44,640 bases of DNA from an uncultured Acidobacteriota bacterium (GTDB lineage Bacteria > Acidobacteriota > HRBIN11 > JAKEFK01). Of the stretch, positions 1,004-36,715 are shown in pieces. A program made the position numbers and the translations under genes. The notes beneath the pieces were generated by a model. That model was not told the DNA's origin, made no database searches, and saw nothing but the letters and a program-made list of their open reading frames with translations. How positions within the stretch are numbered: position 1 is the stretch's first letter; each line of letters opens with the position of its first letter. The stretch lies in NCBI GenBank assembly GCA_964504105.1, contig CAZDDB010000003.1, positions 1 to 44,640 of the forward strand, read 5' to 3'.

Positions 1004-1017
1004 GGAAATGCCGGGTC

Positions 1018-1422: not shown

Positions 1423-1433
1423 CGAAAGCTCCT

Positions 1434-8208: not shown

Positions 8209-8903
8209 TCATACGAACAAAGAATCTCACAAAAGCCTACCAGATGGGCGCCGAGGAAGTGAATGCTCTCAAAGGAGTAGATCTCGAAATCCAGAAAGGC
8301 GATTACATTGCGATCATGGGTCCCTCGGGTTCAGGAAAATCAACGTTGATGAACTTGATCGGTTGCCTGGACACCCCTTCTTCCGGAGAATACTGGTTGA
8401 ACGATCGCGCAGTCAACGCAATGACGGAAGATGAGCTGGCGCGGGTGCGCAACGAGGAAGTCGGATTTGTGTTTCAGTCGTTTCATCTGCTTCCCCGCTA
8501 TACCGCACTGGAAAACGTCCAGCTCCCGCTTGTGTATTCCAACACGGACCGCGAACAGCGGCTGAAGCGCGCAAAGCAGGCGCTCGAAGCAGTCGATCTT
8601 ACCGACCGCATGGGGCATCGTCCCAACCAGCTTTCGGGCGGACAGCGTCAACGCGTCGCAATTGCAAGAGCGCTCATCAACCATCCGTCCATTCTGCTGG
8701 CGGATGAACCCACAGGAAATCTGGATACGTCAACAGGTCAGGAAATTCTTGGGCTGTTCGACAGACTTCATAAATCTGGAAACACCATCATCCTGGTCAC
8801 GCACGAATCCGATGTGGCTGCGCATGCGCGCAGGGTGATTCATCTGCGTGACGGAAAAATCGAGCGCGACCAGATCAACGGAAAGACGGTTGCAGCATCA
8901 TGA
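8205..8903 (+). CDS. ABC transporter ATP-binding protein (MacB/LolD family)
   Basis: Walker [10 protein letters not shown], signature [15 protein letters not shown], Walker [16 protein letters not shown] start overlaps the upstream stop. Confidence 0.9.
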
Positions 8904-17161: not shown

Positions 17162-18946
17162 TCATCCCTCCAAGATTTTGATCATGGCTTTGCCAATGGA
17201 AACACAATCCCCGGTAACTCCCAGATCACAAACTTTGAAGATCTCTGCATTCGCATCGCTGTTCATCGCAATGATTGTACCGGACTTTTGAATTCCGATT
17301 GTGTGATTGAACCTGCCGCTGACACCCAGGCCGAGATACACACGCGGAGCAACAAACTTCCCCGTGAGACCGACCTGATACTGTCTTGGCATCCAGCCGC
17401 TATCCACTACCCTTCTCGTAGCGCCGGCAGCGCCTCCCAACAGTTCAGACAACCGGAATGCAAGAGGCAGATGATCCTGACCGAGTCCCATTCCTGCGCA
17501 AACAATGACCTCCGCCTGATTCATCTTTGCCGCTTCTTTTCCGGCATCCGTTTCACGGGAAAGAATATGAAAGCGCTTCGAGATTGGATAAGGAAACGTC
17601 CAGGCGATTACCGGTATTTTTCTGGCGGGCCGTGGACGGAAAAGAGGAAGCGCGCCCGGACGGATCGTCGCCATCTGCGGAAATGTGCGACTGTATATAG
17701 GAGCGACGATTGTACCTCCAAAAGCAGGTTTCCACTGCACCAACTTCCCTTCGTGATCTATTTCCAGACCGATGCAGTCACCGGTTAGTCCGAGCTGCAA
17801 ACGACCCGCGATGCGTGGGGCAATCAATTTGCCGGACGATGTTGCTGGAATCAAAACGCAATCCGGTTTCAGCGCGGAGATGCGATCACACAGCAGGGCA
17901 ACTGTTTCATCGGGATGAGGCAAAGTCGCGGTTGCCTGAAGGATCCTGCCTGCGCCATAAGAACTGAGCAACAACAGATCTTCCCTGCCGACAGGCGCCC
18001 CGATCAGAACGGCGGAAACCACTCCTCCGTGTGCGGCTGCGAGACTCGCTGCAGTGGAAAGAATTTCAAGAGACACGGGGCGAACGCGATCTTCCGCATA
18101 CTCGATCAAGCACCAGAACTGCCGATCGCTTGTGCCGGTTTTTTCAGGAACGATAGGCGGTTCAACGTTTTGTGATTTCCTGCGTATCAACTGAAGGATC
18201 GTCTGCGCTGCAATTGTTGCATCCGAACCGTCGATGATCTCCGGTCTCCGCTCAACCCGTTGTTCTTGAATGCCCGCCACCCAGGTGGGTGAACCTGACA
18301 ATCCAACCGCTTCCGGCGCCATCCCCAAATCCTCCAGCGTCCACGTCGTGATTTTTTCCGCAGGCGCAGTAGAAAGCGCAACATCTTTCACCTTAATCGG
18401 TTTGATCAGGCGCTCGGCTGTGGAAAGCACAGCAGGCAGAGGAAGTTCAAGTATCTCTATTCCGTCATCCGTTTCGCACGTAACTCGCACATTGCCCGTC
18501 GCATATTCAATTTTTCTGACGGAAACGACCGATGGTATGCCCAGCAATTCGGCAAGTTCCGGAGGAACCTGGCCTGTTTCAGAATCGGTGCTGTGTTGTC
18601 CGCAAAAGATCAAATCGAAGCCGATTTTCCGGGCGGCGGCGGCAAGGACACGCGATGTGGCAAGCGAATCGCTCCCGGCAAACCGGGTGTCTTCCAGATG
18701 CACCGCGCGGTCAGCCCCCATGATCAGGGATTCCTGCAATGCTTCGCGCGCCTGGGGAGGTCCCATTGTTGCCACAATGACTTCCCCACCGTTCTCGTTT
18801 CTGTAACGGATCGCTTCACTGATCGCCCGGCGGTCGTACGGATTGATCATGTTCTTGACTCCGGTCCGGACGATTGTCTTCTTCTCGCGATCGAAATGGA
18901 TATCGGCGGAGTCGGGAACCTGTTTGATAAAAACCAAAAACCTCAT
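17162..18946 (-). CDS. fused electron transfer flavoprotein, EtfB (N-terminal) plus EtfA (C-terminal)
   Basis: 594 aa. EtfB-like residues 1-256 (MRFLVFIKQVPD, INPYDRRAISEA, CGQHSTDSETGQVPPELAELLGIP). Linker about residues 257-276. EtfA-like C-terminus (GATRRVVDSGWMPRQYQVGLTGKFVAPRVYLGLGVSGRFNHTIGIQKSGTIIAMNSD). Confidence 0.85.
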   Translation of the reverse strand: MRFLVFIKQVPDSADIHFDREKKTIVRTGVKNMINPYDRRAISEAIRYRNENGGEVIVATMGPPQAREALQESLIMGADRAVHLEDTRFAGSDSLATSRVLAAAARKIGFDLIFCGQHSTDSETGQVPPELAELLGIPSVVSVRKIEYATGNVRVTCETDDGIEILELPLPAVLSTAERLIKPIKVKDVALSTAPAEKITTWTLEDLGMAPEAVGLSGSPTWVAGIQEQRVERRPEIIDGSDATIAAQTILQLIRRKSQNVEPPIVPEKTGTSDRQFWCLIEYAEDRVRPVSLEILSTAASLAAAHGGVVSAVLIGAPVGREDLLLLSSYGAGRILQATATLPHPDETVALLCDRISALKPDCVLIPATSSGKLIAPRIAGRLQLGLTGDCIGLEIDHEGKLVQWKPAFGGTIVAPIYSRTFPQMATIRPGALPLFRPRPARKIPVIAWTFPYPISKRFHILSRETDAGKEAAKMNQAEVIVCAGMGLGQDHLPLAFRLSELLGGAAGATRRVVDSGWMPRQYQVGLTGKFVAPRVYLGLGVSGRFNHTIGIQKSGTIIAMNSDANAEIFKVCDLGVTGDCVSIGKAMIKILEG

Positions 18947-19943: not shown

Positions 19944-21737
19944 TCACAGTTGGGGCTGTACCAAACGTTTCAACAAGATGAACGTCGTGTCGTCACCCTG
20001 GGGCTGGTCCTGCCGGTGTTCCTGCAGTGCACAGACCAGGGCCTCTTTGACCGCATCCACGGATAATCCTGCATTTTCCTTCAGCACCCGGATAATTTTT
20101 TCCACACCAAACTCCTCTTCCCGGTCATCAATCATTTCGGAAACTCCGTCCGTATAAAGAATCATTGTATCCCCGGGATCCAGCTGGTAGGTGGCGGTAC
20201 GATACGCAGCATCCTTGAAGAATCCAAGAACAGTCCCGCCCGTCTCGAGACGGTCGACATTCCCATTCGTTTTCACAACAAGCGGGTAGCAGTGTCCGGC
20301 ATTCACGTAGGAAAGACGGTGCGTTTCGTGATTCAATATGCCGTAAAAAAAAGTCACATATTTGTTGGACTGGCTGTTGCAGAGAAGCTGGTTGATCTTT
20401 ACAATCGTGAGCACCGGATCCACGATTTCCATGGCAGCGATCGTCCGCAGGGAAGCCTGCAGACACGCCATGATTAGCGCCGCAGGAGTACCTTTTCCGG
20501 AAACATCGCCGATGGCAATTCCAACTTTCAGTTCTGAAATAGGAAGAAAATCAAAGTAATCTCCCGCAACGGAATAGCACGGGTGAAACACGGAAGCAAT
20601 TTCATAACCATCGATTTCCGGAGAGGCGTGAGGAAGCAATCCTACTTGAATATCGCGGGCGATCGCCAGTTCCCGTTCCATTCGCTGCTTTTCAATCATG
20701 GCCAGTTGCATTCGCGCATTTTCCTCCGAAACCAGAGCCAGGCTTGCCAGAGTCGCAATGAAATCGAAATCCTCCTGGCCAAAGGGTTTCTTGCTTCTCT
20801 TTTCACCCAGAAGGATCACACCGCGAATCTCGCCATTGAGGCTCATGGGAACAAGGAGATGCACACGAGCTTCGGCCAGAACGTCCCGCAGAATCCCGTG
20901 CAGCATTCCCTCCACGTAAACCGGAATGGTTCCCCCGGAAAAGAATGTCGCGACCGGCATCTCACCGATTGCTGCAATCGTATCCTGTTCAAGCTTGAAT
21001 CCTCTTTGAAACTTCAGCTGGAATCCGTTCGCCGAGATGGAAATGACGGAGCAACGCGAGATCATGAGTTGTCCGATCAGGGAGCTTCCCAGAATCCGGA
21101 AAATCGTTTCCGGATCCCAGACCGCATGAAAGTCTTTACTGAGTTCAAACAGCGTATTGAGTTGATAGATCTTCAAATTGAGCTGCCGATTGAGTAAACT
21201 CAACGTCTGATTGGTGCGCGCGTTGGCCAGCGCGCCCGCGCACATTTGAACAAGCGATGAAGACGTCTGCAATTCTTCCCGTGAATAGGGATGCCCCGCG
21301 CTCTTTTCGCCGAGGCCAACAACCGCAAGAACCTGGTTGCTGTGGTGGATCGGATACAATACTTGCAATTGCAGCGATTCCATTAGATCGATCCAATCTC
21401 CGCAATCTTCCCGGCTGTAGTATTCGGCAAAAGGAGGTTCTACTGTGCATTTCCAGTTGAGACAGGAGTCTTTGGAGCGATACCCTCTGGTCTCCACGAC
21501 ATCAAATCCTGATTCAGTCTGAAGGAGAAACACGGAACGCCGGGACGCAGTATGCCCCATCAAGGTCAGCACCAGAAGATGAGCGATTTCTTCCACACCG
21601 GAAATCTGATTCAAGCTTGCGGAAAAATCGAAAACCAGCATCAGGTTTGAGAGACGCTTCTCAATTTCCGGATCGGTAAGCCGTTTCGCCTTGAACGAAT
21701 CAATCATGTTCCTGTAATCAAATGAGGAGGATGTCAT
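19944..21737 (-). CDS. GAF-domain PP2C (SpoIIE/RsbU-type) serine phosphatase
   Basis: 597 aa. Two GAF-like regions, then AGDYFDFLP and AIGDVSGKGTPAALIMA, with DDTTFILLK at the C-terminus. Confidence 0.85.
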   Translation of the reverse strand: MTSSSFDYRNMIDSFKAKRLTDPEIEKRLSNLMLVFDFSASLNQISGVEEIAHLLVLTLMGHTASRRSVFLLQTESGFDVVETRGYRSKDSCLNWKCTVEPPFAEYYSREDCGDWIDLMESLQLQVLYPIHHSNQVLAVVGLGEKSAGHPYSREELQTSSSLVQMCAGALANARTNQTLSLLNRQLNLKIYQLNTLFELSKDFHAVWDPETIFRILGSSLIGQLMISRCSVISISANGFQLKFQRGFKLEQDTIAAIGEMPVATFFSGGTIPVYVEGMLHGILRDVLAEARVHLLVPMSLNGEIRGVILLGEKRSKKPFGQEDFDFIATLASLALVSEENARMQLAMIEKQRMERELAIARDIQVGLLPHASPEIDGYEIASVFHPCYSVAGDYFDFLPISELKVGIAIGDVSGKGTPAALIMACLQASLRTIAAMEIVDPVLTIVKINQLLCNSQSNKYVTFFYGILNHETHRLSYVNAGHCYPLVVKTNGNVDRLETGGTVLGFFKDAAYRTATYQLDPGDTMILYTDGVSEMIDDREEEFGVEKIIRVLKENAGLSVDAVKEALVCALQEHRQDQPQGDDTTFILLKRLVQPQL

Positions 21738-21753
21738 CGGAAATTACAAACTA

Positions 21754-21878
21754 CAAGCATCAAATTCCAAACAAATTCAAAATCACAAATTCGAATGCTC
21801 CAAACACCGAATCGAGAGACTTTGGAACATTATTATTTGGAATTTGTTTGGAGTTTGTTTTTTGAGATTTGATGCTTG
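21754..21878. repeat. AT-rich REP-like element family E (CAAGCATCAAAT / CCAAACAAATTC units, inverted)
   Basis: Left CAAGCATCAAATTCCAAACAAATTC (21754..21778). Right end ATTTGATGCTTG (21867..21878). Inner GAATTTGTTTGGA (21840..21852) is the exact reverse complement of 21766..21778. Confidence 0.7.
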
Positions 21879-21900
21879 ACCCATCTGCTGGCGCCACAGA

Positions 21901-22338
21901 CTACTTTTTCAAGTACTTAATCATACAACATTCTGACTGACGCGGACCCGTTTTGTAAGTCACTTCATCCATACATCGTTTCATGATCAATACGCCCAGG
22001 CCGCCTTTCTTCTTTTGTTTGTAGAAGTGCGAAAAATCGTCCGCTTGCGCCCCGGTCGATGTTGCGTCCTGGTCTCCGCTATGTAAAATCCGAACGCGAA
22101 AACATTCCCCTTTCATCTCGTAAATCACGTGCATCTTACGGTCGGATTTGCCGTGATAAGCATGCTCGATTACGTTTGTGAGCGCCTCCTCCACGGCGAG
22201 CGCCGCCTTCTCTGATTCACGAACGGCAAAACCCATGGATTCGGCCAGCGTCTTCGTCAACAGACCCATCGCATGCAGGTGCTTGGTCCTGCTCGGAATC
22301 TTGATCTCAACGATTTCGCCTGAATGGTTCCTTTCCAT
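21901..22338 (-). CDS. anti-sigma-factor-type serine kinase (RsbW/SpoIIAB-like, HATPase_c)
   Basis: 145 aa. N-box AVEEALTNVIEHAY and G-box KKGGLGVLIMKRCMDEV. Confidence 0.8.
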   Translation of the reverse strand: MERNHSGEIVEIKIPSRTKHLHAMGLLTKTLAESMGFAVRESEKAALAVEEALTNVIEHAYHGKSDRKMHVIYEMKGECFRVRILHSGDQDATSTGAQADDFSHFYKQKKKGGLGVLIMKRCMDEVTYKTGPRQSECCMIKYLKK

Positions 22339-22346
22339 TTGATTCC

Positions 22347-22703
22347 CTAACGGGAGGCCTCCGAAAAACTGCCGATTGCTTTCTCTTCCGATTCAAAAAT
22401 CGAATACAGTTGAGTAAACCCCAACACGTCGAAGATGTTGAAAACGGTTTCGTTCATCTGGCACATCCGGATATCCCCTTTATTTTCCCGGATCGTATCG
22501 ATGTAACCCATGATGGCGCCCAATCCGGCGCTGGCGATGTAAGCAAGCTCCCGGCAATTGATCACAATGTTGTTCTGGTTCTGATCTATTAACCGTTGGA
22601 TCGCCGTTTCAAAATCTTTTGCCGTATGCGCGTTGATATATCCGATTGGTTCGACTACAGCAACGCCTTCTTTCGAATGAACTTCAATTCTCAAATCTGT
22701 CAT
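22347..22703 (-). CDS. STAS-domain anti-sigma-factor antagonist (RsbV/SpoIIAA-like)
   Basis: Inner ATG (GAGGT 8 nt upstream) of ORF 22347..22790. LAYIASAGLGAIM contains the phosphorylatable Ser context. Confidence 0.8.
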   Translation of the reverse strand: MTDLRIEVHSKEGVAVVEPIGYINAHTAKDFETAIQRLIDQNQNNIVINCRELAYIASAGLGAIMGYIDTIRENKGDIRMCQMNETVFNIFDVLGFTQLYSIFESEEKAIGSFSEASR

Positions 22704-22778
22704 ACTGAATACCTCGGTCAAAATCCGGACCTCTATCATTATATTCACTTCAACCGGTTTCGGTGTCGGGGCACCCGC

Positions 22779-22806
22779 TTGAGTTGACAACCAGGCCTGC
22801 TATAAT
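22779..22806 (+). promoter_or_regulatory. sigma70-like promoter candidate TTGAGT-N16-TATAAT
   Basis: Perfect -10 TATAAT at 22801..22806 and -35-like TTGAGT at 22779..22784. ATG 22823 is only about 10 nt from the predicted TSS, with no SD. Confidence 0.45.
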
Positions 22807-24899: not shown

Positions 24900-26156
24900 T
24901 CAGTTTTCCAGATTTATCACCGGAGCCACCGGTTTTGTTTTTTGCAGGACCCCCGGTTCTTGCGTCAAGGTCCTTTGAAAATGCAACCGGGGTTCCGCCT
25001 TTCCATCCGCTGTATAACCGCTCAAGGTATATGTAATCCCGTCATTGGAATAGAGGTATGGCCTGGAACGAGCGTCAGCGATATTCTCCGGGCCGAGATA
25101 GCGCGCAACTACAAGTTCTTCCAGTTTTACAGGTAGACGTCCGTTCACTTCAAAGTACATCAAGATCGCGGAGTCCACAAGCTGCAAGCGGGTTACATCC
25201 GCGCTGGAGGCAAGAATAGATTCATCTCCCTTTTGAAAGAACCTCAACCAACCAAGTTTCAATGGATCGCCAAGATTCAGGAAGAACAGAGCAGCCAGCG
25301 CAAGTCCCAGAGCCCAAAAAGCGCCCTTACCCGCGGCAGGCGCAACCACAGGAGCCTCCAGTGGAACCGGTTGAACCGCTTGCTGGCTGGAAGAGCGGGG
25401 CGTCGTAACGTATGGTTCAATGATCTTTCGTTCGAGCAGTTCATATAATGCTTTACAGGTATGAAACTCGCCCAGCTTGTTGCTGTCAATAATATCAGCC
25501 ACGGAATTTTTGCCATCCACGAGCCGGTACACCATTTCTTCTTCTTTGCTCAGCCGGATTTTCTCCGATCCATTCGAATCGCTCCGCAAATCTGAGGAAG
25601 CCAGATCGTTCGCGGCCACCAGAGGCCGGAAGATCACGTCGAAATGTGGAATCTTCTTCTGAATCAGCGGCCACTCATCAATCATGTGAATCCCTTCCAT
25701 CAAAATGCTCTCGGCACTCATGGGCGGAATGCTTTCGTCCGAGTCCGGATCCACATGGGATTTTTGGTCAAAGTAATACTCTCCGGAGTTCCATCGAAAC
25801 AGCCGGTAAATCATTTGCGTAACCTGAATTCTCAGGGCCTCTTTCAGTTCGTCCCTGGAGATATACTTCTGGTCGACCAGAATGAACCCGATTTTCTGCA
25901 AGGTCTTCTGCTGATGTTCCAGCGCATCGCGGAGCTGTTCCTGTGTGATCAGCCCCGTTTTCACAAGGACTTTGCCTATCCGATCTTCCAACTTCCTGGG
26001 ACTGTTATCAGCACCGATTACCATACCGCTGTGAAACGTGACGGTCACGGTTTCTTTAGGATTCTTCAGGGTCAAAATTCCAGTCTTGCGTTGAATTCCA
26101 ATCAACTGGAAAATATCCGCCAAACTGAAATCTTCGAGCGTTCCTTCGAGAGCCAT
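24900..26156 (-). CDS. PATAN (DUF4388) / tandem MshEN-like motif / TM / pseudopilin-like ectodomain protein
   Basis: MALEGTLEDFSLADIFQLIGIQRKTGILTL. RIGKVLVKTGLITQEQLRDALEHQ-QKTLQ-KIGFILVDQKYISRDELKEALRIQ. TM GAFWALGLALAALFFLNLG. C-terminus NGRLPVKLEELVVARYLGPENIADARSRPYLYSNDGITYTLSGYTADG. Confidence 0.75.
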   Translation of the reverse strand: MALEGTLEDFSLADIFQLIGIQRKTGILTLKNPKETVTVTFHSGMVIGADNSPRKLEDRIGKVLVKTGLITQEQLRDALEHQQKTLQKIGFILVDQKYISRDELKEALRIQVTQMIYRLFRWNSGEYYFDQKSHVDPDSDESIPPMSAESILMEGIHMIDEWPLIQKKIPHFDVIFRPLVAANDLASSDLRSDSNGSEKIRLSKEEEMVYRLVDGKNSVADIIDSNKLGEFHTCKALYELLERKIIEPYVTTPRSSSQQAVQPVPLEAPVVAPAAGKGAFWALGLALAALFFLNLGDPLKLGWLRFFQKGDESILASSADVTRLQLVDSAILMYFEVNGRLPVKLEELVVARYLGPENIADARSRPYLYSNDGITYTLSGYTADGKAEPRLHFQRTLTQEPGVLQKTKPVAPVINLEN

Positions 26157-26222
26157 AATTTCAAAAGGTTTTTCAGGGGGCAGAAACCATTATAGCAAAT
26201 TGTGGAGGCTGCACGGTGCGCC

Positions 26223-26378
26223 GGGTGCACGACAAATTTGTTGTAGGACTTGAGAAAGCGGTTTGTACCGCTGGCGTCTCGCCGGCCAAAACAGAGATTC
26301 CAGCTCGAGCTCTGCCAGCGTGACGCTGGCGTTACAAACCGTAAACATGCTTTCTTACAACAAATTTGTCGTGCACCC
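26223..26378. mobile_element. MITE-like non-autonomous element (156 bp, 23-bp perfect TIRs)
   Basis: GGGTGCACGACAAATTTGTTGTA (26223..26245) and its exact reverse complement (26356..26378). Flanked by direct repeats CGGTGCGCC (26214..26222 and 26379..26387). The interior has a second imperfect inverted repeat (CGGTTTGTA 26259..26267 / TACAAACCG 26333..26341). No ORF inside. Confidence 0.6.
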
Positions 26379-26397
26379 CGGTGCGCCCCGCAACTGT

Positions 26398-28281
26398 TCA
26401 GGATTTTGACTTCAGCAAGTGCGGGACATTAGCAAGAAGATAGACGACGGCAAGAACAAAGATCAAGAAAGGTGTGAGAATCTTCATTCCTTCGGCTGGT
26501 TCCAGGTACGAAAGGTTGGCATATTTCCAGCTAAACACGAGAAGAGCAAGGGGGAAGAGCCAGAACAACAGCAGCAAGACCCCGGATATAGTCTGATTCC
26601 CGTAAATCCCGGCAGCGCCGGGCATGACCAGCGAAGAAAGACGCACGAACAATCCCTGTCTTCTGGCATGTTGTTCGATTTCATGCATCTTTTCCTTCCT
26701 GGACACAGACGAGACACCGTCCTTTCGCACAAAAATGTGCAAACACTGGATACAAAACGGATAATCTTTGTTTGAAGGCTGACATTTTTTGCAGAAGGCC
26801 TCACCGCACTTTACACAGTCCCGGGCCGCATTCTTCCGGCTTCTGAGTCCGAAAAGCACAGCAAAAAGCAGGAATCCGACTATAAGAAGGCTGAAGGGAT
26901 CCTGAAACGGAAGCACACTCCGGCGATTCTCCTTTTTTAACTTCTGCCACACAATTTGCTCGGATGGGACGGCATCGATCAATCTTTCTTGAGGGGCTGC
27001 CTCGAAGGTCTCAACGAGTTGAAAATCCAGTTTGCGAGCAACGTCCAGATAACGCTGCGCCTCACTGAAATTGAACTTCGCTCTCTGCAGCTTGGAAAGG
27101 TTATACGAATAAATCGGGTTTCGGGAATCCAGACCTGCCGCTTTTTGAGCGAGACGAAGAGGAGTATCCGTCTCTCCTTGCAAGTAGAAAATGACTGCCA
27201 GGTTATTGTATGCCCGGGCATCGTCCGGGTGACTGATGAGATGTTTGTGAAGGATCTCGGTGGCGAATGTCATGCGCCGGTCGGTCTTGTACAGATTCGC
27301 AAGCAGAATCGATGCATCGCGTTCTGTGGGATTCTCCGCAGCATATTTTTCAAAATCCGCAATCGATTTCAATGTAGCACCTTCCGAAAAAACGGAAATG
27401 TAGCTGGCGATCGAAGGATCTTTGCTCGCCCGGGAGTTGTCAAGTACCGAGCGATACGCGGAAAAACCCACGGCTATGAGCAGAAGAATCAGGACAGATA
27501 GAATTTTTTCCGAAACACGCGCATGCACCCAAAAGATCATCATCCAGAAAGGCGCAAGCCAGAAGGGTCCGAGAAACAGTATCAGCGGAAGAAACAGGAG
27601 ACTCCATGCAAGGAAACCCGCCAGGACCGGCCGCTCTGAACGAACCCGTTCCACAACCTCATGACGAAAAACGTGATTGTATTTCGCAAACAGCACAAGC
27701 GCAAAACAGAACCCAAGCGCAAGCACCGTAACCCAGAGAATCAGAACATACTTTGAATAGAAATACATCTTGCCGGCCGGCGTTCGCAAGGGAGCAAGAA
27801 CTCCTTCCATCGAGGCAGCTGCCGCCGGGCCTATTCCCCTGATTCCCTTGGTCAAATGAACCTTTGCCTGTGAATAATATGCATATGGCAAAGAGGGATC
27901 CAGCCTTGCAGCCGTCTCAAAGAGATGTAATGCGGCATCGGGTCTTTTTCGGGAAAGCTCCTCTTTTCCATGCTGGATCAACCCAACAGCAAATTCAGTG
28001 ATCTTCGGGAGCGAGTACTGAGACCGTAAAACTAGAATTTGTTTTAGCGCCTTTTCTTCCTTTTCCGGATCACCATCCTTGAATGCCGTTTCAAAATCAC
28101 GCCATTTCTCGTAGAAGAGTTTAAATCCTTCCTGAGAAAGACGCGTCAGGTCTTCTTCCGATAGTGGACCGCCGGTTGCTTCGTCCTTCGGGGATTTCTT
28201 CTCCTCCTGAATGACAAGCACATCCTGGGCAAAGAGATGCGGCTGGAAAAGCAGGAACAGTACAAGAACAAGGAGCCTCAT
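26398..28281 (-). CDS. polytopic membrane TPR protein with embedded Cys4 zinc-ribbon
   Basis: Signal peptide MRLLVLVLFLLFQPHLFAQ, TPR blocks on both sides of a multi-TM core, CVKCGEAFCKKCQPSNKDYPFCIQCLH, and further C-terminal TMs. Confidence 0.7.
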   Translation of the reverse strand: MRLLVLVLFLLFQPHLFAQDVLVIQEEKKSPKDEATGGPLSEEDLTRLSQEGFKLFYEKWRDFETAFKDGDPEKEEKALKQILVLRSQYSLPKITEFAVGLIQHGKEELSRKRPDAALHLFETAARLDPSLPYAYYSQAKVHLTKGIRGIGPAAAASMEGVLAPLRTPAGKMYFYSKYVLILWVTVLALGFCFALVLFAKYNHVFRHEVVERVRSERPVLAGFLAWSLLFLPLILFLGPFWLAPFWMMIFWVHARVSEKILSVLILLLIAVGFSAYRSVLDNSRASKDPSIASYISVFSEGATLKSIADFEKYAAENPTERDASILLANLYKTDRRMTFATEILHKHLISHPDDARAYNNLAVIFYLQGETDTPLRLAQKAAGLDSRNPIYSYNLSKLQRAKFNFSEAQRYLDVARKLDFQLVETFEAAPQERLIDAVPSEQIVWQKLKKENRRSVLPFQDPFSLLIVGFLLFAVLFGLRSRKNAARDCVKCGEAFCKKCQPSNKDYPFCIQCLHIFVRKDGVSSVSRKEKMHEIEQHARRQGLFVRLSSLVMPGAAGIYGNQTISGVLLLLFWLFPLALLVFSWKYANLSYLEPAEGMKILTPFLIFVLAVVYLLANVPHLLKSKS

Positions 28282-28673
28282 TTTATGATGTTCGCCTTTT
28301 GCAGAAAGCGCATACGTAAATCAAAAAGAGCGCTTTCCAGGTACTTCCCTTCGTTTGAAGTCAGGTTACCCTTTGTTTTTTCCTGCATCAGATCCAGGAT
28401 ATCGATCATCTGCTGTACGCCGGGCAGGTTCTGCGAGACTGAGTTCGTAGCCGGATCAGGAAGATCGCCCAGGTAAATGAGCGCGGTATGGACATAAGTG
28501 AAGAGAACAGCTATGAGATCGAGCTTTTCAGGCGATTCGGGGAGTGGCGGTTCCGCGGCCTCATTCTGAGGAAATGTGGCTTTCTCTTCATTCTGGAGAA
28601 CTACATTTCCATCCCTGTCAAAGTGACGCTTGTCCTGAACTTTGATTTCTTCCTTTTTCGGGTTCTCTTCCAC
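28278..28673 (-). CDS. DUF1844 domain protein
   Basis: LFTYVHTALIYLGDLPDPATNSVSQNLPGVQQMIDILDLMQEKTKGNLT matches my recollection of DUF1844. ATGA overlap with the downstream gene. Confidence 0.65.
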   Translation of the reverse strand: MEENPKKEEIKVQDKRHFDRDGNVVLQNEEKATFPQNEAAEPPLPESPEKLDLIAVLFTYVHTALIYLGDLPDPATNSVSQNLPGVQQMIDILDLMQEKTKGNLTSNEGKYLESALFDLRMRFLQKANIIK

Positions 28674-28707: not shown

Positions 28708-30738
28708 TTACGGCATTTTGAGGAGTACCAGCGTTACATCATCCTGAGGCTCCTGGCGGTTGAGAAATCCATTCAGGTCCAGGAGGATGGCACTTTTGAT
28801 GTCTTCGGTAGACTTTTCTTTATTTGCAAGAATGATTGAAGAAAGTCTCGAAAGTCCATAAAGCTGGTTCGTTTCGTTCATGGCTTCCGTCAATCCATCC
28901 GTGTAGAAAACCAGAATATCTCCCGAATCCAGTTTGCGCTCAACCTCCTCCAAAGTCTTTTCAAACATCCCGTTCTTTCCCATGCCCAGCGCGATTCCGC
29001 CTGGCTGCACAATATCTACCCTGCCACCGGCAGCTGAGTAATGGAGGATTGGATTGTGTCCTGCCCTGCTGAGTTTCATGATTCGGGCAGGTTCATTGAT
29101 CAGAGCGTAGGTCATGGTAATGAAGTTACGGGAATCGAGGGTTGGGGCAAGGATAGCGTTAGCTTCGAGCAGCACTTCTCTGGGCAGGATTGTGCGCCGG
29201 CTGACGGACAGCATGACCCCTTTTACTTCGGCCATATAGAGGGCCGCGCTGGGGCCTTTTCCGGAAACATCTGCCACGATGATCGCCATTTCTTCGTCAC
29301 TTTTACGGATAATGTCGTAGTAATCGCCGCACACTTCTTGAGCAGGCAGATTGAGTGTTGCGATTTGAATGGCTCCTACCGAAGTAATCTCTCGCGGCAA
29401 CAAGTTCTGCTGCATCTGGCGCGCAATGCGCAGGGATTCCGCAAGTCTTTCTTTTTCCGAACTATCAACCAGCAGGTTCTTGATGCTCTCAGTCATGCTG
29501 TTGAAAGACATTGCCAGTTCACCCAGTTGATCCTGCGCATGCACCTTGATCTTGTAATTCAGGTCTCCCTTCTTGATTCTCTCCGTGCCTTCAAAAAGAT
29601 TGTGAACGGACGTAGTAATTGAACGGGCAAGCAGCAATCCAAAGATCACAGAGAAAAGCTCAATGATCAAGAAAAAGATTGCCACTGCAAGTATGAGACC
29701 ATAAACAAACTTCTGCAGCGCAGTGCTGCGCGCGAAGATGTGGTTATAAACACGGGAGACATTCGTGCGGACCCAGAATGCACCCAGCGGGAGATCGTCA
29801 TCAGTGTTCTCACCGGGCATGGCGTCCACCTTCTCATCAATCACCACCACGGTTTCCGGAGAACCTGTGTCTTTCTTTTTGTCCTTATCGAGCTGAAACA
29901 AGCTGATTTTCGCGCCAGTAGACCAATCGTACTGATCAGGCAGGCTCAGCCACCAGACGGGGATGTCCCACCAGACCGGCCACGCAGGCTGATTCTTCGA
30001 TGTCGCAAGCGTTTCCTGCAACTCCTTCTCCGCGCTATGCGACTCGGAAAACGGAAGATAGTGGATATCTGCGTCCGTGCGCTTCTTGACCGCCTCCAAT
30101 AACGAAGAGCTCACCGGAACAAGCATCTGAATCGACCTTTTGCTCTCCGGATCGTGATGGATGGCAGCGATCCATGGATGGGAATCGCGAATGACAAAAC
30201 CGGAAAACTCCTTCGTGTGAACCCATTCCGGCAGATCGCCGGATGAACCTCCCTGTAATTGACTACGGCCATCCGGGCCGGACAACGTAATCTCTGCCAA
30301 TTCCAGCCATTTTGCGTCCTCCGGCGCTAACTCACGGAGCCAGCGTCTGAGAGCGTGCTCCCCTCCCATCATTTCCGTCATGTGAAGCAGTTTCTGACTT
30401 TCGATTCTTGTCTGCAGGATGTAACCGTCCAAATTCGACTGGAACATCTCCGAAGTAGCCTGCCCCATAAAGATGAAAAAGCCGAGACCAACAAGAACGA
30501 ACAACAACATGACGGGAACAAAACCGATGAAAATATAGGATAGAATGAGTTTCCTGCGGATTCGCCAGAGAAACTTGCGTAAAAGTTTTCGAGTTAAGCG
30601 GAAGGCATAATAAACTGTGAGAATGAAGAGACAAGCCCGGAGGATCGTCCGGAGCGACTCCGACCAATCGCCGCCAATGATCGTAAGCAGCAGCCAGGCA
30701 GCAATCATTCCCAGGTAAATCTTGAATAAGCGGCTCAT
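28708..30738 (-). CDS. membrane sensor HAMP-PP2C (SpoIIE-type) phosphatase
   Basis: N-terminal TMs, large periplasmic loop, HAMP (ITTSVHNLFEGTERIKKGDLNYKIKVHAQDQLGELAMSFNSM), CGDYYDIIR, VADVSGKGPSAALYMA, DDVTLVLLK. Confidence 0.85.
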   Translation of the reverse strand: MSRLFKIYLGMIAAWLLLTIIGGDWSESLRTILRACLFILTVYYAFRLTRKLLRKFLWRIRRKLILSYIFIGFVPVMLLFVLVGLGFFIFMGQATSEMFQSNLDGYILQTRIESQKLLHMTEMMGGEHALRRWLRELAPEDAKWLELAEITLSGPDGRSQLQGGSSGDLPEWVHTKEFSGFVIRDSHPWIAAIHHDPESKRSIQMLVPVSSSLLEAVKKRTDADIHYLPFSESHSAEKELQETLATSKNQPAWPVWWDIPVWWLSLPDQYDWSTGAKISLFQLDKDKKKDTGSPETVVVIDEKVDAMPGENTDDDLPLGAFWVRTNVSRVYNHIFARSTALQKFVYGLILAVAIFFLIIELFSVIFGLLLARSITTSVHNLFEGTERIKKGDLNYKIKVHAQDQLGELAMSFNSMTESIKNLLVDSSEKERLAESLRIARQMQQNLLPREITSVGAIQIATLNLPAQEVCGDYYDIIRKSDEEMAIIVADVSGKGPSAALYMAEVKGVMLSVSRRTILPREVLLEANAILAPTLDSRNFITMTYALINEPARIMKLSRAGHNPILHYSAAGGRVDIVQPGGIALGMGKNGMFEKTLEEVERKLDSGDILVFYTDGLTEAMNETNQLYGLSRLSSIILANKEKSTEDIKSAILLDLNGFLNRQEPQDDVTLVLLKMP

Positions 30739-33435: not shown

Positions 33436-33546
33436 GATCTGCCTCGTTCGTGCCCCTCTCGCTTGCGGCGCTTACGCGCTTACGGCAGTTTCATTGACCC
33501 ATTTCGGTTTGAGAATTATAATACACGGGTCTTTTCCTTTATTCTC

Positions 33547-35103
33547 ATGAATTTCCGCGCCTTTTTCTTGCTTCTGATTGTGTCCTTCGCGGTGTCTATT
33601 CCGCTGCCTGCCGATCCTGTACACACGGACCAGGAATTGGATTCTGTGATCATACAGGCGAATAATCTCTTTCTCGATGCCAGATTTGACGAGGGAATTG
33701 AGCTCCTACAACAGATGGAGAAAAGACACCCGAACAATCCTGCCGTTTCCTTCTTTACCGCAAATGGATACTGGTGGAAAATCTTCCGCGCTTATATCTA
33801 TGACAAAGATGCGAAGAATACCGAGTTCGACAAGAACTTCGACAATTATCTGAAACAAACCATCAGCAGATCGGAAGATCTTCTTGACAAAAACAAGAGG
33901 GACGCTCAAGGGTTGTTTTATCTGGGAAATGCCTACAGCCTGCGTTCCCGTGTCAAGGGACTTCGCAGCAGTTATTTCTCCGCGGGGCGGGATGCGGCCA
34001 AGGGAAAGTTCTATCTGGAAGAAGTCCTGAAGATCTATCCGAAACAATACGACGCCTATTACAACCTCGGGGTCTATCATTATTTTGCCTCTACCCTTCC
34101 AGGGTTCGCAAAAGTTCTGAAAGCGCTTCTGTTTCTCCCGGGCGGCAGCCGTGAGAAAGGGTTGTCTCTGTTGACGGAAGCGGGACAAAAATCGCTCTAT
34201 TTTGGCGACGAATCACAACTGATCCTCGCCCGTTTTTATGCTGATTTTGAAGAAGAGCCTTACGACGCGCTCCGGATTGTCGAAACCTATCACAAAAAAC
34301 ACCCGGACAACGCCTGGTTTCACTTCTGGATGGGCACACTCTACTCGGATGAAATCAACGACTACTACCAGGCCGCTGATATTTATCGGGAAATTCTGGA
34401 GAAATGTAACCAATCGGTTACGAATTACACGGAAGAGGTCAAGACCCAGGCGTGGTTGAAGCTGGCCCGCTCATACATCAAGCAACTGGATCCGGATCGA
34501 GGTATCGAGGAAATCCAAAAACTCATCGCCACCAAACCCACAGCCCCATCATGGATCCTTCCACGGACGTATCTGGAGCTGGGAAACGCTTACGACCAGA
34601 TCGGAATGAGGAAAGAGGCCACAAGCGCGTACCATCAGGTGCTCTCCTATCCTGATTACCGCGATTACCACAGTCAGGCCGAGAAACTCTTACACTTGAA
34701 TTACAATCAGGCCTCCGCGATGATCTATCGTGCCAACCTGGAAGGAAGACGTCTGACCGCAGCAGGAAACTATGCGGAAGCAGAAGATGCTTTTCAAAAA
34801 GTCCTGGAGCAGTATCCCAACAATGAGCAGTCTTTGCTTGCGATGGCGGAGATGAATTACGCAAAGGGAAGCTACAAAGAAGCCACTGATCTACTCAACC
34901 AGATTCTGGCCCGGCGTCCCGATGAACCGAAGTGGATTCTGGCAAGCGTTTACGTTCGGCTTGGCCAGGTTTCCGAAGCGCGAAAACAGGTTGCCGCAGC
35001 TCGCAATCTATATGAGAAGGCATTGGATACGAAATTTCTTGCATCCGACGACCGCAATATCGCGAAGCGTGCGTTGAAACAGATCGCCCAGAAGAGTAGT
35101 TAA
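33547..35103 (+). CDS. secreted TPR-repeat protein
   Basis: Inner ATG of ORF 33463..35103. Signal peptide MNFRAFFLLLIVSFAVSIPLPA. TPR units throughout (for example AEDAFQKVLEQYPNNEQSLLAMAEMNYAKGSYKEA). Confidence 0.7.
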   Translation: MNFRAFFLLLIVSFAVSIPLPADPVHTDQELDSVIIQANNLFLDARFDEGIELLQQMEKRHPNNPAVSFFTANGYWWKIFRAYIYDKDAKNTEFDKNFDNYLKQTISRSEDLLDKNKRDAQGLFYLGNAYSLRSRVKGLRSSYFSAGRDAAKGKFYLEEVLKIYPKQYDAYYNLGVYHYFASTLPGFAKVLKALLFLPGGSREKGLSLLTEAGQKSLYFGDESQLILARFYADFEEEPYDALRIVETYHKKHPDNAWFHFWMGTLYSDEINDYYQAADIYREILEKCNQSVTNYTEEVKTQAWLKLARSYIKQLDPDRGIEEIQKLIATKPTAPSWILPRTYLELGNAYDQIGMRKEATSAYHQVLSYPDYRDYHSQAEKLLHLNYNQASAMIYRANLEGRRLTAAGNYAEAEDAFQKVLEQYPNNEQSLLAMAEMNYAKGSYKEATDLLNQILARRPDEPKWILASVYVRLGQVSEARKQVAAARNLYEKALDTKFLASDDRNIAKRALKQIAQKSS

Positions 35104-35109
35104 CGAACC

Positions 35110-36714
35110 ATGCAGTCGCCCACACGTGGATCGTTGACCGCAATCAGCCTGATTGAGCTTCTTAAAGACGCTGCCGATTCCGGTCTGACCGGAATGCTTC
35201 GTGTGGAACCCGGACCATTTGTTAAAGTTGTATATTTTCAGGACGGTACGATTGCGTTTGCCTCTTCCAATGAAAAATCGGACCGTCTTACAGAGGTGCT
35301 GCGGCTCGCAGGAAAACTTACGCCGGAACAGGTTGAAGATGCCCAGGCGCGTCTAAAACCAAATGTTTCGTTGGGAAAAACCCTCGTAGAGCTTGGTTAC
35401 CTCAGCCCGCGTGATCTCCTGTGGGGCGCAAGAGCGCAGGTTGAGGGGATTTGCCACCGTCTTTTGCTTCTGACTGACGGGAACTATCAGGTTCTGGAAG
35501 GCAGTTTGCCGAAAGAAATCATCAAGCTGAATCTTCCCGTTCCGCAGGTGATCTTTGAGGGCATTCTGAAGAGCCAGGACCGCGCGTGGGTTCTGCAACA
35601 TATTGAATCTCCTGAGGCGACTTACGGACTGTCATCCGATTTTCATGAAAAGTACGTTCGTTACGGGCTGAGGGCTGACGCGGTAGTTTCGCGTATGGAT
35701 GGAAAGCGATCGCTGGATGAGATAGCACACCTTGCCGGAATCGACACGTTCGAGATTTGCAAAATGGCCGTTGCCTTACAGTACCTGGGTCTGGCTCGGC
35801 GGGCCCCTCTTCAAATGGCTTTGCTCGAACCGAAATTGGAACCACAATTGGAACCAGCAGTGAAACAAGAGCCGCAGAAGGCCGGCGAACCGGAGCAAGA
35901 AACTCCCGTTCCGGACAAAACACCCGCTTACGAGGAGAGAGTTTCACTGGGTGAAGTAGTGCAAATTCCAACGGTGGAAGATTTGCACAAGGAGCCTGAA
36001 GAAGAGCCGCATCCACAGGAAATTACGAGCGCGACGGTTCTCGATGCCGAAGGCCCTGCTGAACCTGAGAGCGCTGAACCCGTACCTGCGATACCACTCA
36101 AGCCGATCCCGGTACCTTTTTCTCGTGGATTATTAACAGAAGAGGAAGAGATTGCCGAGGTGAAACCACGGTGGGAAGTCTCCCGGCGTTCCATATCCGC
36201 GATCGCCGTTCTGGTTCTCATTTGCGCTTCCGCCGCCTATTACTGGTTCGGAGTCAAAACCAAACATTCAAGTGGCATCCCGGACGTGCCAAATACCGTT
36301 TTACCTTCCAAGAAACCCGAAACCCAAACATCCGTCGAAACAACTACTCAAACATCTTCCACCGATTCTCAGGGTGAACCATCAGCAGCCATGACCCTGC
36401 TCCAATCGGGACGGATTCCGCAAGCTGCATTTGCATGGAAGCAGGAAACTGCGAACAGGAAATCAAAATTTACAATTCAACTATTGATCGCCTGTCAGGA
36501 AAAAACGGTGCTGGAATCACTGCAGGCCGTGCCTGATGCGAAAGACTTTTTGATTTTACCCTTGCAGTACAAGGGACAATCCTGCTACCGTGTCCTCTAC
36601 GGGCTGTACGAAACCGAGCGAGAAGCGCAGTCTGCAGCAACGCGTCTGCCCCCAGTATTTCTACAACAGGCCTCTCCGGCCCGGGCGGTCCCTTTGCAAA
36701 AGATCTGGCAATAA
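35110..36714 (+). CDS. PATAN (DUF4388) / MshEN-like / Pro-Glu linker / TM / SPOR-like protein
   Basis: ISLIELLKDAADSGLTGMLRV. RLTEVLRLAGKLTPEQVEDAQARL-KPNV-SLGKTLVELGYLSPRDLLWGARAQ. TM ISAIAVLVLICASAAYYWFGV. C-terminal SPOR-like FTIQLLIACQEK...YRVLYGLYETEREAQSAATRLP. Confidence 0.7.
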   Translation: MQSPTRGSLTAISLIELLKDAADSGLTGMLRVEPGPFVKVVYFQDGTIAFASSNEKSDRLTEVLRLAGKLTPEQVEDAQARLKPNVSLGKTLVELGYLSPRDLLWGARAQVEGICHRLLLLTDGNYQVLEGSLPKEIIKLNLPVPQVIFEGILKSQDRAWVLQHIESPEATYGLSSDFHEKYVRYGLRADAVVSRMDGKRSLDEIAHLAGIDTFEICKMAVALQYLGLARRAPLQMALLEPKLEPQLEPAVKQEPQKAGEPEQETPVPDKTPAYEERVSLGEVVQIPTVEDLHKEPEEEPHPQEITSATVLDAEGPAEPESAEPVPAIPLKPIPVPFSRGLLTEEEEIAEVKPRWEVSRRSISAIAVLVLICASAAYYWFGVKTKHSSGIPDVPNTVLPSKKPETQTSVETTTQTSSTDSQGEPSAAMTLLQSGRIPQAAFAWKQETANRKSKFTIQLLIACQEKTVLESLQAVPDAKDFLILPLQYKGQSCYRVLYGLYETEREAQSAATRLPPVFLQQASPARAVPLQKIWQ

Positions 36715-36715
36715 C

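Follow-up and report, generated by a model that had tools for sequence, protein, structure and literature searches.

A conserved PATAN protein of uncultured Acidobacteriota with an MshEN_N-type insertion and a leaderless GspG-like domain, a candidate membrane-spanning c-di-GMP receptor

The window, i.e., the whole 44.6-kb stretch of DNA that was analysed, contains a gene of 418 codons plus stop exactly where a previous reading of the sequence alone (the sequence-only reading) had located it, preceded on the same strand by genes for a TPR/Cys-rich membrane protein and for a small DUF1844 protein (Table 1). From the N- to the C-terminus, its deduced product, designated here the focal protein, comprises a PATAN domain with an MshEN_N insert, a winged-helix-like domain, a linker, a TM helix and a GspG-like domain. 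The N-terminus (MALEGTL...) is invariant across homologs, indicating that the start codon is right. The four modules proposed in the sequence-only reading (PATAN, a tandem MshEN-type motif, one TM helix and a leaderless GspG-like C-terminus) withstood profile and structure tests, and its interpretation is overall supported, with corrections on the placement of the motif, the location of the C-terminus and the family context. As it had also anticipated, this architecture has no characterised precedent: literature searches did not retrieve any characterised protein matching it, nor is there a match in Supplementary Table 4 of Wang et al. Foldseek comparisons of the full-length model against the PDB gave nothing at E<0.1 and produced local domain matches only; those to actin/MreB were dismissed as noise (rmsd ~10 Å, probability <=0.3).

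Table 1. Features of the focal gene and its surroundings; coordinates are those of the window.
Feature	Coordinates	Strand	Basis
Triad gene 1: DUF1844 protein, 131 aa	28278..28673	(-)	PF08899, E=5.6e-20
TPR/Cys-rich polytopic membrane protein, 627 aa, upstream partner	26398..28281	(-)	TPR Pfam matches
Palindromic element, ~170 nt, in the gap from TPR to focal gene	26215..26386	(-)	Nested inverted repeats
Focal CDS, 418 aa + stop	24900..26156	(-)	ORF listing
PATAN/DUF4388 core, N-terminal half, residues 4-49	26010..26147	(-)	PF14332 model positions 1-46, E=9e-13 (fragment scan)
MshEN_N-type tandem motif in PATAN, residues 59-111	25824..25982	(-)	NF053729
Motif I, residues 59-82	25911..25982	(-)	
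Motif II, residues 88-111	25824..25895	(-)	
PATAN/DUF4388 core, C-terminal half, residues ~113-162	25671..25820	(-)	PF14332 model positions 76-121, E=9.4e-8 (fragment scan)
Winged-helix-like alpha/beta domain, residues ~200-250	25407..25559	(-)	Model: three helices + flanking strands, pLDDT ~85
Pro/Ala-rich disordered linker, residues ~251-275	25332..25406	(-)	pLDDT <50 for residues 252-275
Single hydrophobic TM helix, residues ~276-297	25266..25331	(-)	Kyte-Doolittle
GspG/EpsG-like pseudopilin globular domain, residues ~309-396	24969..25232	(-)	Long helix + three-stranded sheet
Conserved C-terminal tail VINLEN-COOH, family pattern [IVL]x[LFIV][EQVIL][NDEPQ]	24903..24920	(-)	

In 85 of 85 loci, the focal gene is immediately preceded by a co-oriented TPR gene, whose stop codon is a median of 3 nt from the focal start, and the DUF1844 gene, which overlaps the start of the TPR gene by 4 nt, occurs upstream and on the same strand in 69 of the 73 loci with enough flanking sequence. 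These two are the only syntenic genes across the 85 loci, and the DUF1844-TPR-PATAN triad persists at ~25% partner identity and in a distant lineage. The gap between the TPR and focal genes in the window (241 nt) is atypical due to the insertion of the palindromic element, which forms a hairpin with a dG of -95 kcal/mol (z=-10.8) and is absent from all 85 related loci. The possibility of a structured RNA or riboswitch upstream of the focal gene was discarded, with no match in Rfam, also for the palindromic element, and a scan for promoters and terminators gave results at chance level.

The TPR protein has a hydrophobic N-terminus, putatively a signal peptide, followed by TPR repeats arranged in blocks between several TM segments, and a Cys-rich loop with three CxxC motifs. 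Residues C489, C492, C497, C500 and C510 are invariant, as are H207 and E211, and C513 is nearly so. Searches for a characterised homolog or a solved structure of this protein returned generic TPR matches only, and the sources name it TPR repeat protein; likewise, DUF1844 has no relative in the PDB and effectively no literature. A role of the locus in defence was also considered and rejected, with no PADLOC match for the focal, TPR or DUF1844 proteins. From their synteny, the focal protein may be in physical contact with the TPR protein and with DUF1844.

A phyletic survey identified relatives of the focal protein in at least 431 species-representative genomes and in more than 2,200 database proteins. 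The best 80 genome loci encode full-length proteins and are almost all from Acidobacteriota MAGs, and the full-length architecture is kept both in them and in the best 120 listed homologs. The gene is real and codes for a widely conserved, unstudied membrane protein of uncultured Acidobacteriota-type bacteria; far from being an isolated oddity, it belongs to a large family encoded in a conserved operon.

The Pfam profile for DUF4388/PATAN (PF14332) matched the focal protein with E=2.9e-34 (118 bits, with a cutoff of 25), and the N-terminal half of the domain is the best-conserved region of the protein, with ~70% identity between distant clades. The PATAN identity proposed for the N-terminus was thus correct, but the tandem MshEN_N-type motif does not lie downstream of the domain: it splits its core, being an insertion inside PATAN and not a following domain. 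In the Pfam DUF4388 model, positions 51-75 represent one hairpin, and both copies of the motif matched there in the fragment scan. PATAN is described in the literature as a protein-interaction output domain acting on the T4P motor at the inner membrane, with interactions with PilB/PilC known only for Synechocystis proteins. The focal protein shares the PATAN core and an alpha-helical insertion at the same site with PATAN regulators such as PixE, PixG and PatA; unlike them, it is anchored by its own TM helix and is devoid of a REC domain, since Pfam gave no Response_reg match and the C-terminal REC domain typical of PatA is absent.

The insertion consists of two copies, 5 residues apart, of a 24-mer with the strict sequence RLGxx(L/V/I)(L/V/I)xxG(L/V/I)(L/V/I)xxxxLxxxLxxQ, and both its boundaries and its spacer (QKTLQ) were correctly identified from sequence. 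Motif I was said to fit every fixed position, which holds if L, I or V is permitted at position 2 but not literally, as it starts with RIG instead of RLG. The claim that motif II is altered only at the central G is valid under the relaxed pattern of Wang et al., whereas strictly it shows the changes R1->K, L2->I and G10->K; G10 of motif II is kept in 19 of 42 homologs. The lack of the central Gly and the presence of Lys for Arg at position 1 of motif II, in this clade, count against a sensor function. The NCBIfam profile NF053729 matched the focal protein along its full length (positions 1-53 of 53) with 58 bits, over a cutoff of 38 (E=5.8e-16), and the motif match is hence far beyond chance. 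This cutoff was also exceeded in the other seven proteins, of the eight with the same architecture that were tested, with 48-58 bits. Moreover, among 42 homologs, both motifs show little or no variation at the c-di-GMP contact positions R/K1, G3, L17, L/I21 and Q24, and this conservation extends across clades that are only ~40% identical overall. In the AlphaFold model, the insert folds into helices 56-67, 72-85, 89-95 and 101-119 and overlays the structure of MshE with c-di-GMP (5HTL) with an rmsd of 0.7 Å over 54 columns (Foldseek against 5HTL_B, probability 0.99); PilF GSPII-B was also matched.

The T2SSE_N profile (PF05157) did not match the focal protein; this silence is to be expected because, according to the supplement of Wang et al., the Pfam model leaves out the first three MshEN_N helices. 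Since there is no PF05157 match and the second half of PATAN directly follows the motif, the alpha-beta subdomain MshEN_C/T2SSE_N1 is lacking and the focal protein falls in the MshEN_N-only class and not in full MshEN. MshE/PilB-type ATPases sense c-di-GMP through MshEN_N, and modules of 53-62 residues, when isolated, are enough to bind it with sub-micromolar affinity (Wang et al., 2016; PMC5013675). The focal protein has the same 53-residue arrangement of tandem 24-mers with a 5-residue spacer as the known MshEN and MshEN_N receptors (Vibrio cholerae MshE, 5HTL; NfrB, Methylobacillus EpsG and Bd2402), together with a predicted four-helix bundle and the conserved contact residues. Unlike in these receptors, its module sits inside PATAN and shares its polypeptide with a TM helix and an ectodomain resembling a pseudopilin, two arrangements absent from the architecture table of Wang et al., and the protein lacks an ATPase, glycosyltransferase, REC or any other enzymatic output. 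Also against a sensor function, no GGDEF or EAL gene was found among the annotated ORFs of the window.

The MshEN-like hairpins could, on the other hand, be an ordinary structural insertion of PATAN that does not bind c-di-GMP, in which case the protein would be a ligand-independent membrane scaffold or anchor. The presence of one such hairpin in the Pfam model is consistent with this possibility, as are the two-hairpin insertion found at the same position in a soluble PATAN protein from T. roseum, which gives no NF053729 score, and the second PATAN protein of the window, with just 26 bits, below the cutoff; additionally, degenerate MshEN domains that do not bind the ligand exist, such as that of XpsE, as reported in PMC5013675. 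However, conservation in the focal family goes beyond the hydrophobic pattern and includes the ligand-contact residues, and the NF053729 cutoff was exceeded in all eight members tested. The signature is thus complete in the focal insertion and not in the other examined PATAN proteins, and this contrast indicates that there is selection for it in the focal family. We consider a purely structural role quite unlikely, c-di-GMP being the predicted ligand of the insert. The T. roseum protein also weakens the more general idea that all PATAN insertions bind c-di-GMP.

The winged-helix-like domain showed weak TrmB/PqqD-type matches in homologs and is 51% identical across clades, whereas the linker retains 10% identity. 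By eye, PATAN is followed by this unit in two other proteins as well, the one from T. roseum and the second PATAN protein of the window. As proposed, there is one TM helix, the sole segment above the threshold (19-residue Kyte-Doolittle mean hydropathy >1.6); one such segment, of 19-22 residues, occurs in 42 of 42 homologs, and its sequence is 10% identical between clades. The residue directly after it, Pro298, is invariant. In the largest clade, the N-terminal flank of the helix contains 0 K/R and 3-5 D/E and the C-terminal flank contains 1-3 K/R, which is the reverse of the positive-inside expectation and favours an "inside" position of the C-terminal side. This, together with the poor conservation of the TM sequence, would fit a cytoplasmic GspG-like domain, with the hydrophobic segment being monotopic or re-entrant or making helix-helix contacts with the partner within the membrane, and thus without trans-membrane signalling. 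Nevertheless, the constant presence of a single hydrophobic helix of 19-22 residues in all 42 homologs speaks against this alternative, and the N-terminal 275 residues lack a signal peptide and carry a predicted nucleotide-binding module, which would place them in the cytoplasm and leave C-out as the sole spanning topology. Genuine pseudopilins also possess a K/R-rich periplasmic stretch just past the TM helix, and the EpsG segment agrees with this. A cytoplasmic C-terminus appears therefore very unlikely, and we favour an N-in/C-out topology with a probably periplasmic C-terminal domain. Across clades, the predicted cytoplasmic modules are 51-70% identical and the ectodomain 29%, a stronger constraint on the N-terminal modules that would be expected if the sensor is cytoplasmic.

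The model of the C-terminal domain, with a core pLDDT of 90-97, matched the EpsG structures 4LW9 and 3GN9 using Foldseek (TM 0.57-0.58, rmsd 3.6 Å, 105 columns, probability ~0.9), in agreement with the pseudopilin-like fold that had been predicted. Sequence profiles were positive for the family and not for the focal protein itself: its own C-terminus had no Pfam match, including the T2SSG profile (PF08334), which did detect 13 of 25 homolog C-termini (best E=2.6e-7) and scored 27 bits in homolog P0099, with a cutoff of 21. Likewise, hhalign aligned the family profile with EpsG (94%, E=1.3e-7); it superseded a profile HMM search of the C-terminal domain against PDB sequences, in which GspG ranked first but at no better than E=0.19-0.5. 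These comparisons indicate that, at the family level, the domain is a homolog of the globular region of GspG/EpsG (PF08334, TIGR01710; 4LW9, 3GN9, 3FU1, 2KEP), with which it shares the long alpha1C helix and the three-stranded sheet. Most members of the family retain the DPWG.PY.Y region of GspG/EpsG; the clade of the focal protein carries DARSRPY, a decayed form of the DPWG motif. As in a pilin, the globular domain comes after a hydrophobic helix; unlike in GspG/EpsG, there is no short basic leader, Gly(-1) cleavage site or E5, the leader being replaced by the predicted cytoplasmic domain of 275 residues. The absence of a prepilin leader noticed from sequence extends to the family: none is present or conserved before the hydrophobic helix and, in 42 homologs, neither a Gly nor a Glu is conserved where a G|F-x-x-x-E site would need them. 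A cryptic prepilin-peptidase site, GKG|AFW, was discarded since close relatives do not keep its Gly. To recover true prepilins, 1.84 billion representative proteins were searched using the profile of the C-terminal domain; the 150 matches listed were mostly fragments of family members, and also included non-pilin proteins with GspG-like domains, and the leader was absent from 24 of 24 sequences examined among them. The C-terminal tail pattern closes 33 of 42 homologs, after a non-conserved spacer. C-terminal peptides are classic ligands of TPR domains, and the occurrence of this tail on the focal protein, with a TPR protein encoded upstream, is an observation in favour of a partnership.

The nature of these modules also suggests a c-di-GMP-gated regulator of T4P or T2SS, acting as an uncleavable mimic of a pseudopilin: in the cytoplasm, PATAN would bind the assembly ATPase, PilB/GspE, or the platform protein PilC and, in the periplasm, the membrane-tethered GspG-like domain would dock at the site of pseudopilin entry into the platform, priming or blocking filament assembly. 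PATAN, MshEN_N and GspG-like modules all come from the T4P/T2SS world, the major pseudopilin being a homolog of the C-terminal domain. In homolog P0081, moreover, a weak TIGR01710 match starts within the TM helix at model position 8, and the TM helix plus globular domain would thus be collinear with a leaderless GspG; an invariant Pro ~20-22 residues past the start of the hydrophobic stretch is reminiscent of P22 of pilins. Conversely, pil and gsp genes are missing both from the window and from the flanks, as annotated with Pfam, of three diverse loci (L001, L002 and L083). Unlike that of GspG/EpsG, the focal gene is outside any gsp or pil operon, and synteny is limited to the TPR and DUF1844 genes. 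The conserved operon, with no pilus or T2SS genes nearby, makes a partner in the pilus machinery less likely. The absence of the cleavage site and of E5 points in the same direction, and GspG-like globular domains are also found in non-pilin secreted proteins, so the fold alone does not imply a role in pili. For these reasons, direct control of a pilus or secretion system is possible but rather unlikely.

Instead, we favour a reading of the focal protein as a single-pass inner-membrane c-di-GMP receptor, subunit of a three-protein module, that would operate by inside-out signalling; taken as a whole, we give it about an even chance of being right. The N-terminal 250 residues, predicted to be cytoplasmic, would form a sensor made of PATAN with an intact MshEN_N four-helix c-di-GMP module, followed by the winged-helix-like domain, and the flexible linker and the TM helix would join this sensor to a periplasmic, leaderless GspG-like domain with its conserved tail. 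The other two subunits would be the small DUF1844 protein and the TPR/Cys-rich polytopic membrane protein, co-translated with it. Once c-di-GMP is bound at the insert, the PATAN/winged-helix unit would undergo a change, in conformation or in oligomeric state, that would be passed on to the partner, to the pseudopilin-like domain beyond the membrane, or to both; the direction of signalling in this scheme is one that we infer.

Two known systems are comparable to this arrangement. The LapD/LapG system of Pseudomonas fluorescens is a case of inside-out c-di-GMP signalling, from a cytoplasmic sensor to a periplasmic protein-binding output. The focal protein would share with LapD the logic of a c-di-GMP module joined through the membrane to a periplasmic output, as a functional analogy only: no degenerate GGDEF/EAL, HAMP or LapG-binding domain was detected in it, it has one TM helix instead of two, and no LapG-like protease or adhesin is encoded near its gene. 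GspL and PilM-PilN are bitopic assembly-platform proteins in which a single TM helix joins a cytoplasmic domain, of a type that binds the ATPase for secretion or pili, to a periplasmic one in contact with pseudopilins. Their layout of a cytoplasmic domain, one TM and a periplasmic domain is that proposed here for the focal protein, but the analogy is architectural, since its cytoplasmic domain is PATAN and not actin-like, and neither sequence nor profile similarity was detected.

The position of the motif inside PATAN, the extent of the family, the synteny with TPR and DUF1844 genes and the absence of linked pilus or T2SS genes are new findings of this work. A wider reading, which we regard as unlikely as a whole, is that leaderless pseudopilins behind a PATAN-MshEN_N sensor are a new class of trans-membrane c-di-GMP effector, constituting with the TPR/Cys-rich partner and DUF1844 either a novel envelope machine or a novel point of control over pilus or secretion assembly in Acidobacteriota, and that the PATAN insertion is, more broadly, an often degenerate MshEN_N, with a subset of PATAN regulators being direct c-di-GMP receptors. 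The focal family also offers a reinterpretation of the unexplained alpha-helical insertion of PATAN domains. In this family, three elements of the pilus and secretion world, namely PATAN, MshEN_N and the pseudopilin fold, are joined in one polypeptide, and the class of MshEN_N receptors would extend to a membrane-spanning protein with an extracytoplasmic output. If inside-out signalling occurs, it would be a second mechanistic route, after LapD, for the passage of c-di-GMP information across the inner membrane. The operon likewise offers a first functional context for two orphan partners, DUF1844 and the TPR/Cys-rich membrane protein. Acidobacteriota are abundant in soil and their c-di-GMP effectors are little known; the family described here provides a specific receptor candidate in hundreds of species.

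The 418-residue protein read from the focal ORF is as the sequence-only reading had quoted it, and its start codon is settled, since the N-terminus MALEGTL... is invariant among homologs. The DUF4388/PATAN call (now PatA_N in Pfam) was borne out with E = 2.9e-34. When fragments were scanned separately, PF14332 positions 1–46 aligned to residues 4–49 and positions 76–121 to residues ~113–162, with each 24-mer motif falling on positions 51–75. On these scans the PATAN core is split in two, which makes the MshEN_N module an insertion within PATAN and not a separate domain after a PATAN start. The module occupies the site of the "alpha-helical insertion" of PATAN, a term from the title of Makarova et al. 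(2006). An AlphaFold model (42-sequence alignment, mean pLDDT 75) has four helices across residues 56–119, a second alpha/beta unit of winged-helix-like look (~175–250), a disordered Pro/Ala-rich linker (252–275), the TM helix, a long helix (309–338) and three strands. The one TM helix noticed earlier is the sole hydrophobic segment (~276–297).

NF053729, the curated NCBIfam model "cyclic di-GMP-binding domain, MshE-related", aligned end to end (positions 1–53 of 53) to residues 59–111 with E = 5.8e-16 and 58 bits, where the cutoff is 38; nt 25824..25982, assigned to the tandem motif beforehand, encode exactly these residues. Motif I, RIGKVLVKTGLITQEQLRDALEHQ, said to satisfy all fixed positions, does match the strict pattern in a regex check, with the qualification that position 2 is Ile. 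Motif II, KIGFILVDQKYISRDELKEALRIQ, follows after five residues (QKTLQ) and was thought to lack only the central Gly; Lys is indeed at position 10, but the motif also differs at K1 and I2, and position 10 is its sole failure against the relaxed pattern of Wang et al. (2016; PMC5013675). Apart from such small details of motif II, the earlier description is accurate, far beyond chance. In Foldseek, the insert model superposed on 5HTL_B (MshE with c-di-GMP) at 0.7 Å over 54 columns (30% identity, probability 0.99), and PilF GSPII-B/c-di-GMP structures were also matched. In an alignment of 42 homologs, the positions that contact c-di-GMP (R/K1, G3, L17, L/I21 and Q24) show little or no variation in either motif, and 19 of the homologs also retain the central Gly of motif II; that the insert is a non-binding structural insertion is improbable in our judgement. 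The binding signature is selectively maintained in this family, since all eight same-architecture proteins tested exceeded the NF053729 cutoff, whereas the second PATAN protein of the window reached only 26 bits (cutoff 38) and a soluble PATAN protein from Thermomicrobium roseum gave no score, despite having two hairpins inserted at the corresponding site.

The C-terminus had been read as pseudopilin-like and leaderless, and family-level comparisons agree. It has no Pfam match of its own, but T2SSG (PF08334) was matched by 13 of 25 homolog C-termini (best E = 2.6e-7), and the homologs P0099 and P0103 passed its gathering score (27 bits vs 21). GspG structures ranked first, though weakly, in a PDB search with the C-terminal profile, and hhalign of that profile against a Vibrio cholerae EpsG sequence, two segments of which agreed with the PDB search output, gave 94% probability (E = 1.3e-7) over 61 columns including the DPWG.PY.Y region. 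The isolated-domain model (pLDDT 82, core 90–97) fitted best on EpsG structures 4LW9 and 3GN9 (TM 0.57–0.58, rmsd 3.6 Å over 105 columns, probability ~0.9). In homolog P0081 a weak TIGR01710 match starts at model position 8, within the TM helix; TM helix and globular domain are therefore collinear with a leaderless pseudopilin. The Gly(-1)/Glu+5 prepilin signature is neither present in the focal protein nor conserved among homologs, and is absent from all relatives retrieved from 1.84 billion representative proteins. The protein thus has a pseudopilin-like domain and is no pseudopilin. Three database matches outside the window (P0139, P0153 and P0184) carry 3–11 tandem GspG-like globular domains, so the fold is reused outside pili; P0139 and P0153, whose sequences were fetched, begin with a hydrophobic, signal-peptide-like N-terminus without a prepilin leader.

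In the largest clade the TM helix has an acidic flank on its N-terminal side (0 K/R, 3–5 D/E) and a basic one on its C-terminal side, which runs against the positive-inside rule for an N-in/C-out protein. Genuine pseudopilins have a basic periplasmic stretch after the TM helix. N-in/C-out is nevertheless predicted as the sole plausible spanning topology, because the 275-residue N-terminal region lacks a signal peptide and carries the predicted nucleotide-binding module; a cytoplasmic C-terminus, as the flank charges would have it, seems very unlikely. The protein ends in a conserved tail, [IVL]x[LFIV][EQVIL][NDEPQ]-COOH in 33 of 42 homologs (e.g., VINLEN or GGITLVE), after a non-conserved spacer.

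The focal gene is the last of a three-gene set with DUF1844 and TPR/Cys-rich membrane protein genes. The TPR gene lies directly upstream in all 85 related loci (median gap from TPR stop to PATAN start, 3 nt) and DUF1844 is present in 69 of the 73 with enough flank; the triad is kept where partner identity is ~25%, and a distant lineage (P0186/L083) has it too. Downstream genes differ between loci. The partner starts with a hydrophobic, putative signal-peptide-like stretch; it also has TPR blocks and several hydrophobic segments, and its CxxC-x4-CxxC-x9-CxxC loop is invariant. Searches found no characterised homolog of it, and for DUF1844 no structure and effectively no literature. The conserved tail could be a peptide ligand of the partner's TPR repeats.

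Features of the window discussed in the text
Feature	Position	Strand	Remarks
Bat-like (aerotolerance-type) cluster	14..6241	+	DUF58, two VWA, VWA-TPR, BatD-like
MacAB-type HlyD/ABC/FtsX set	6952..11385		after Bat-like cluster
ETF ORF	17162..18946	-	594 aa; two ETF domains, ETF_alpha FAD-binding domain
GAF-SpoIIE phosphatase	19944..21737	-	
Anti-sigma-type HATPase_c_2 kinase	21901..22338	-	
STAS	22347..22790	-	
Focal CDS	24900..26156	-	418 aa; ORF listing
Conserved extreme C-terminal motif	24903..24920	-	residues 413–418; homolog alignment
Palindrome	26215..26386		arms 26223-26248/26353-26378, 26259-26286/26314-26341
TPR membrane protein	26398..28281	-	627 aa; upstream of focal gene, same strand
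DUF1844 protein	28278..28673	-	4-nt overlap with TPR gene start
HAMP-SpoIIE phosphatase	28708..30738	-	
Neighbour of second PATAN gene	33463..35103	+	TPR protein
Second PATAN/DUF4388 protein	35110..36714	+	534 aa
Neighbour of second PATAN gene	36590..38098	+	TPR-Peptidase_MA_2

Between the TPR and focal genes lies a near-perfect, nested palindrome of ~170 nt that folds as one hairpin (-95 kcal/mol, z = -10.8) and is unique in the window. Rfam gave no match, and the element is missing from all 85 related loci. It resembles a MITE- or REP-like insertion specific to this lineage that splits an otherwise translationally coupled pair. Partner-switching signalling genes flank the triad on both sides (19944..22790 and 28708..30738). 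HAMP-SpoIIE, the only one compared across loci, is syntenic in closer relatives (loci L001, L003–L007), but Thermoanaerobaculia do not share this synteny. For STAS, the kinase and GAF-SpoIIE, a matching arrangement was seen in L001 alone. The 594-aa ETF ORF is apparently a fused EtfB-EtfA, and L001 carries the same fusion.

The second PATAN protein has a degenerate MshEN-like tandem insertion (residues 59–104) at the position of the focal insert. It has one TM helix, and its C-terminus gives weak SPOR and GspA-like matches. Its gene also directly follows a TPR gene, so "TPR protein, then PATAN-TM-periplasmic domain" may be a recurrent design. The T. roseum protein (WP_012642962.1; locus L086, megaplasmid NC_011961.1, 799524..800666), PATAN plus winged-helix-like, comes from a cultured organism and adjoins exopolysaccharide-type genes (Wzz, glycosyltransferase, undecaprenyl-phosphate glucose phosphotransferase); the c-di-GMP signature is missing from its insertion, and the protein could act as a negative control in binding studies.

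More than 2,200 related database proteins, annotated only as DUF4388 or hypothetical, were found, the best 120 sharing the full architecture, and relatives are encoded in at least 431 species-representative genomes. The best 80 of these are all MAGs, with no cultured organism, from Acidobacteriota (Thermoanaerobaculia, Vicinamibacteria, "gp7"), Candidatus Fischerbacteria or unclassified bacteria; the closest locus among the matches listed is from an unclassified MAG (L003, 76% identical). Window GC is ~51%. Conservation between clades is far stronger in the cytoplasmic modules, at 51–70% identity; the TM helix reaches 10% and the GspG-like domain 29%.

The earlier statement that no characterised protein has this architecture holds for the tables of Wang et al. 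(2016) and our literature searches. Among the many MshEN and MshEN_N architectures tabulated there, none has the module inside PATAN or fused to a TM helix or pilin-like domain, and DUF4388 appears only as a separate C-terminal domain (MXAN_2809). Han et al. noted co-occurrence of DUF4388 and GspE_N annotations, nothing further, and the searches retrieved no paper on the family, its partners or c-di-GMP binding by PATAN. Every part belongs to a known kind; what is new is their combination and the operon.

A regulator of pili or the T2SS that is gated by c-di-GMP and mimics a pseudopilin, but cannot be cleaved, would fit the origin of all three modules and the reported binding of PATAN to PilB/PilC in Synechocystis. 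However, the window and three annotated loci contain no genes for pili or type II secretion, and without such a genomic link we consider this reading doubtful. The best-supported reading, which we hold with about even confidence, is that the protein crosses the membrane once as a c-di-GMP receptor and serves as the sensing subunit of an inner-membrane module of three proteins. Binding of c-di-GMP to the four-helix insert would alter the PATAN/winged-helix unit, which in turn would act on the TPR/Cys-rich partner and/or the periplasmic pseudopilin-like domain, an inside-out signalling logic like that of LapD.
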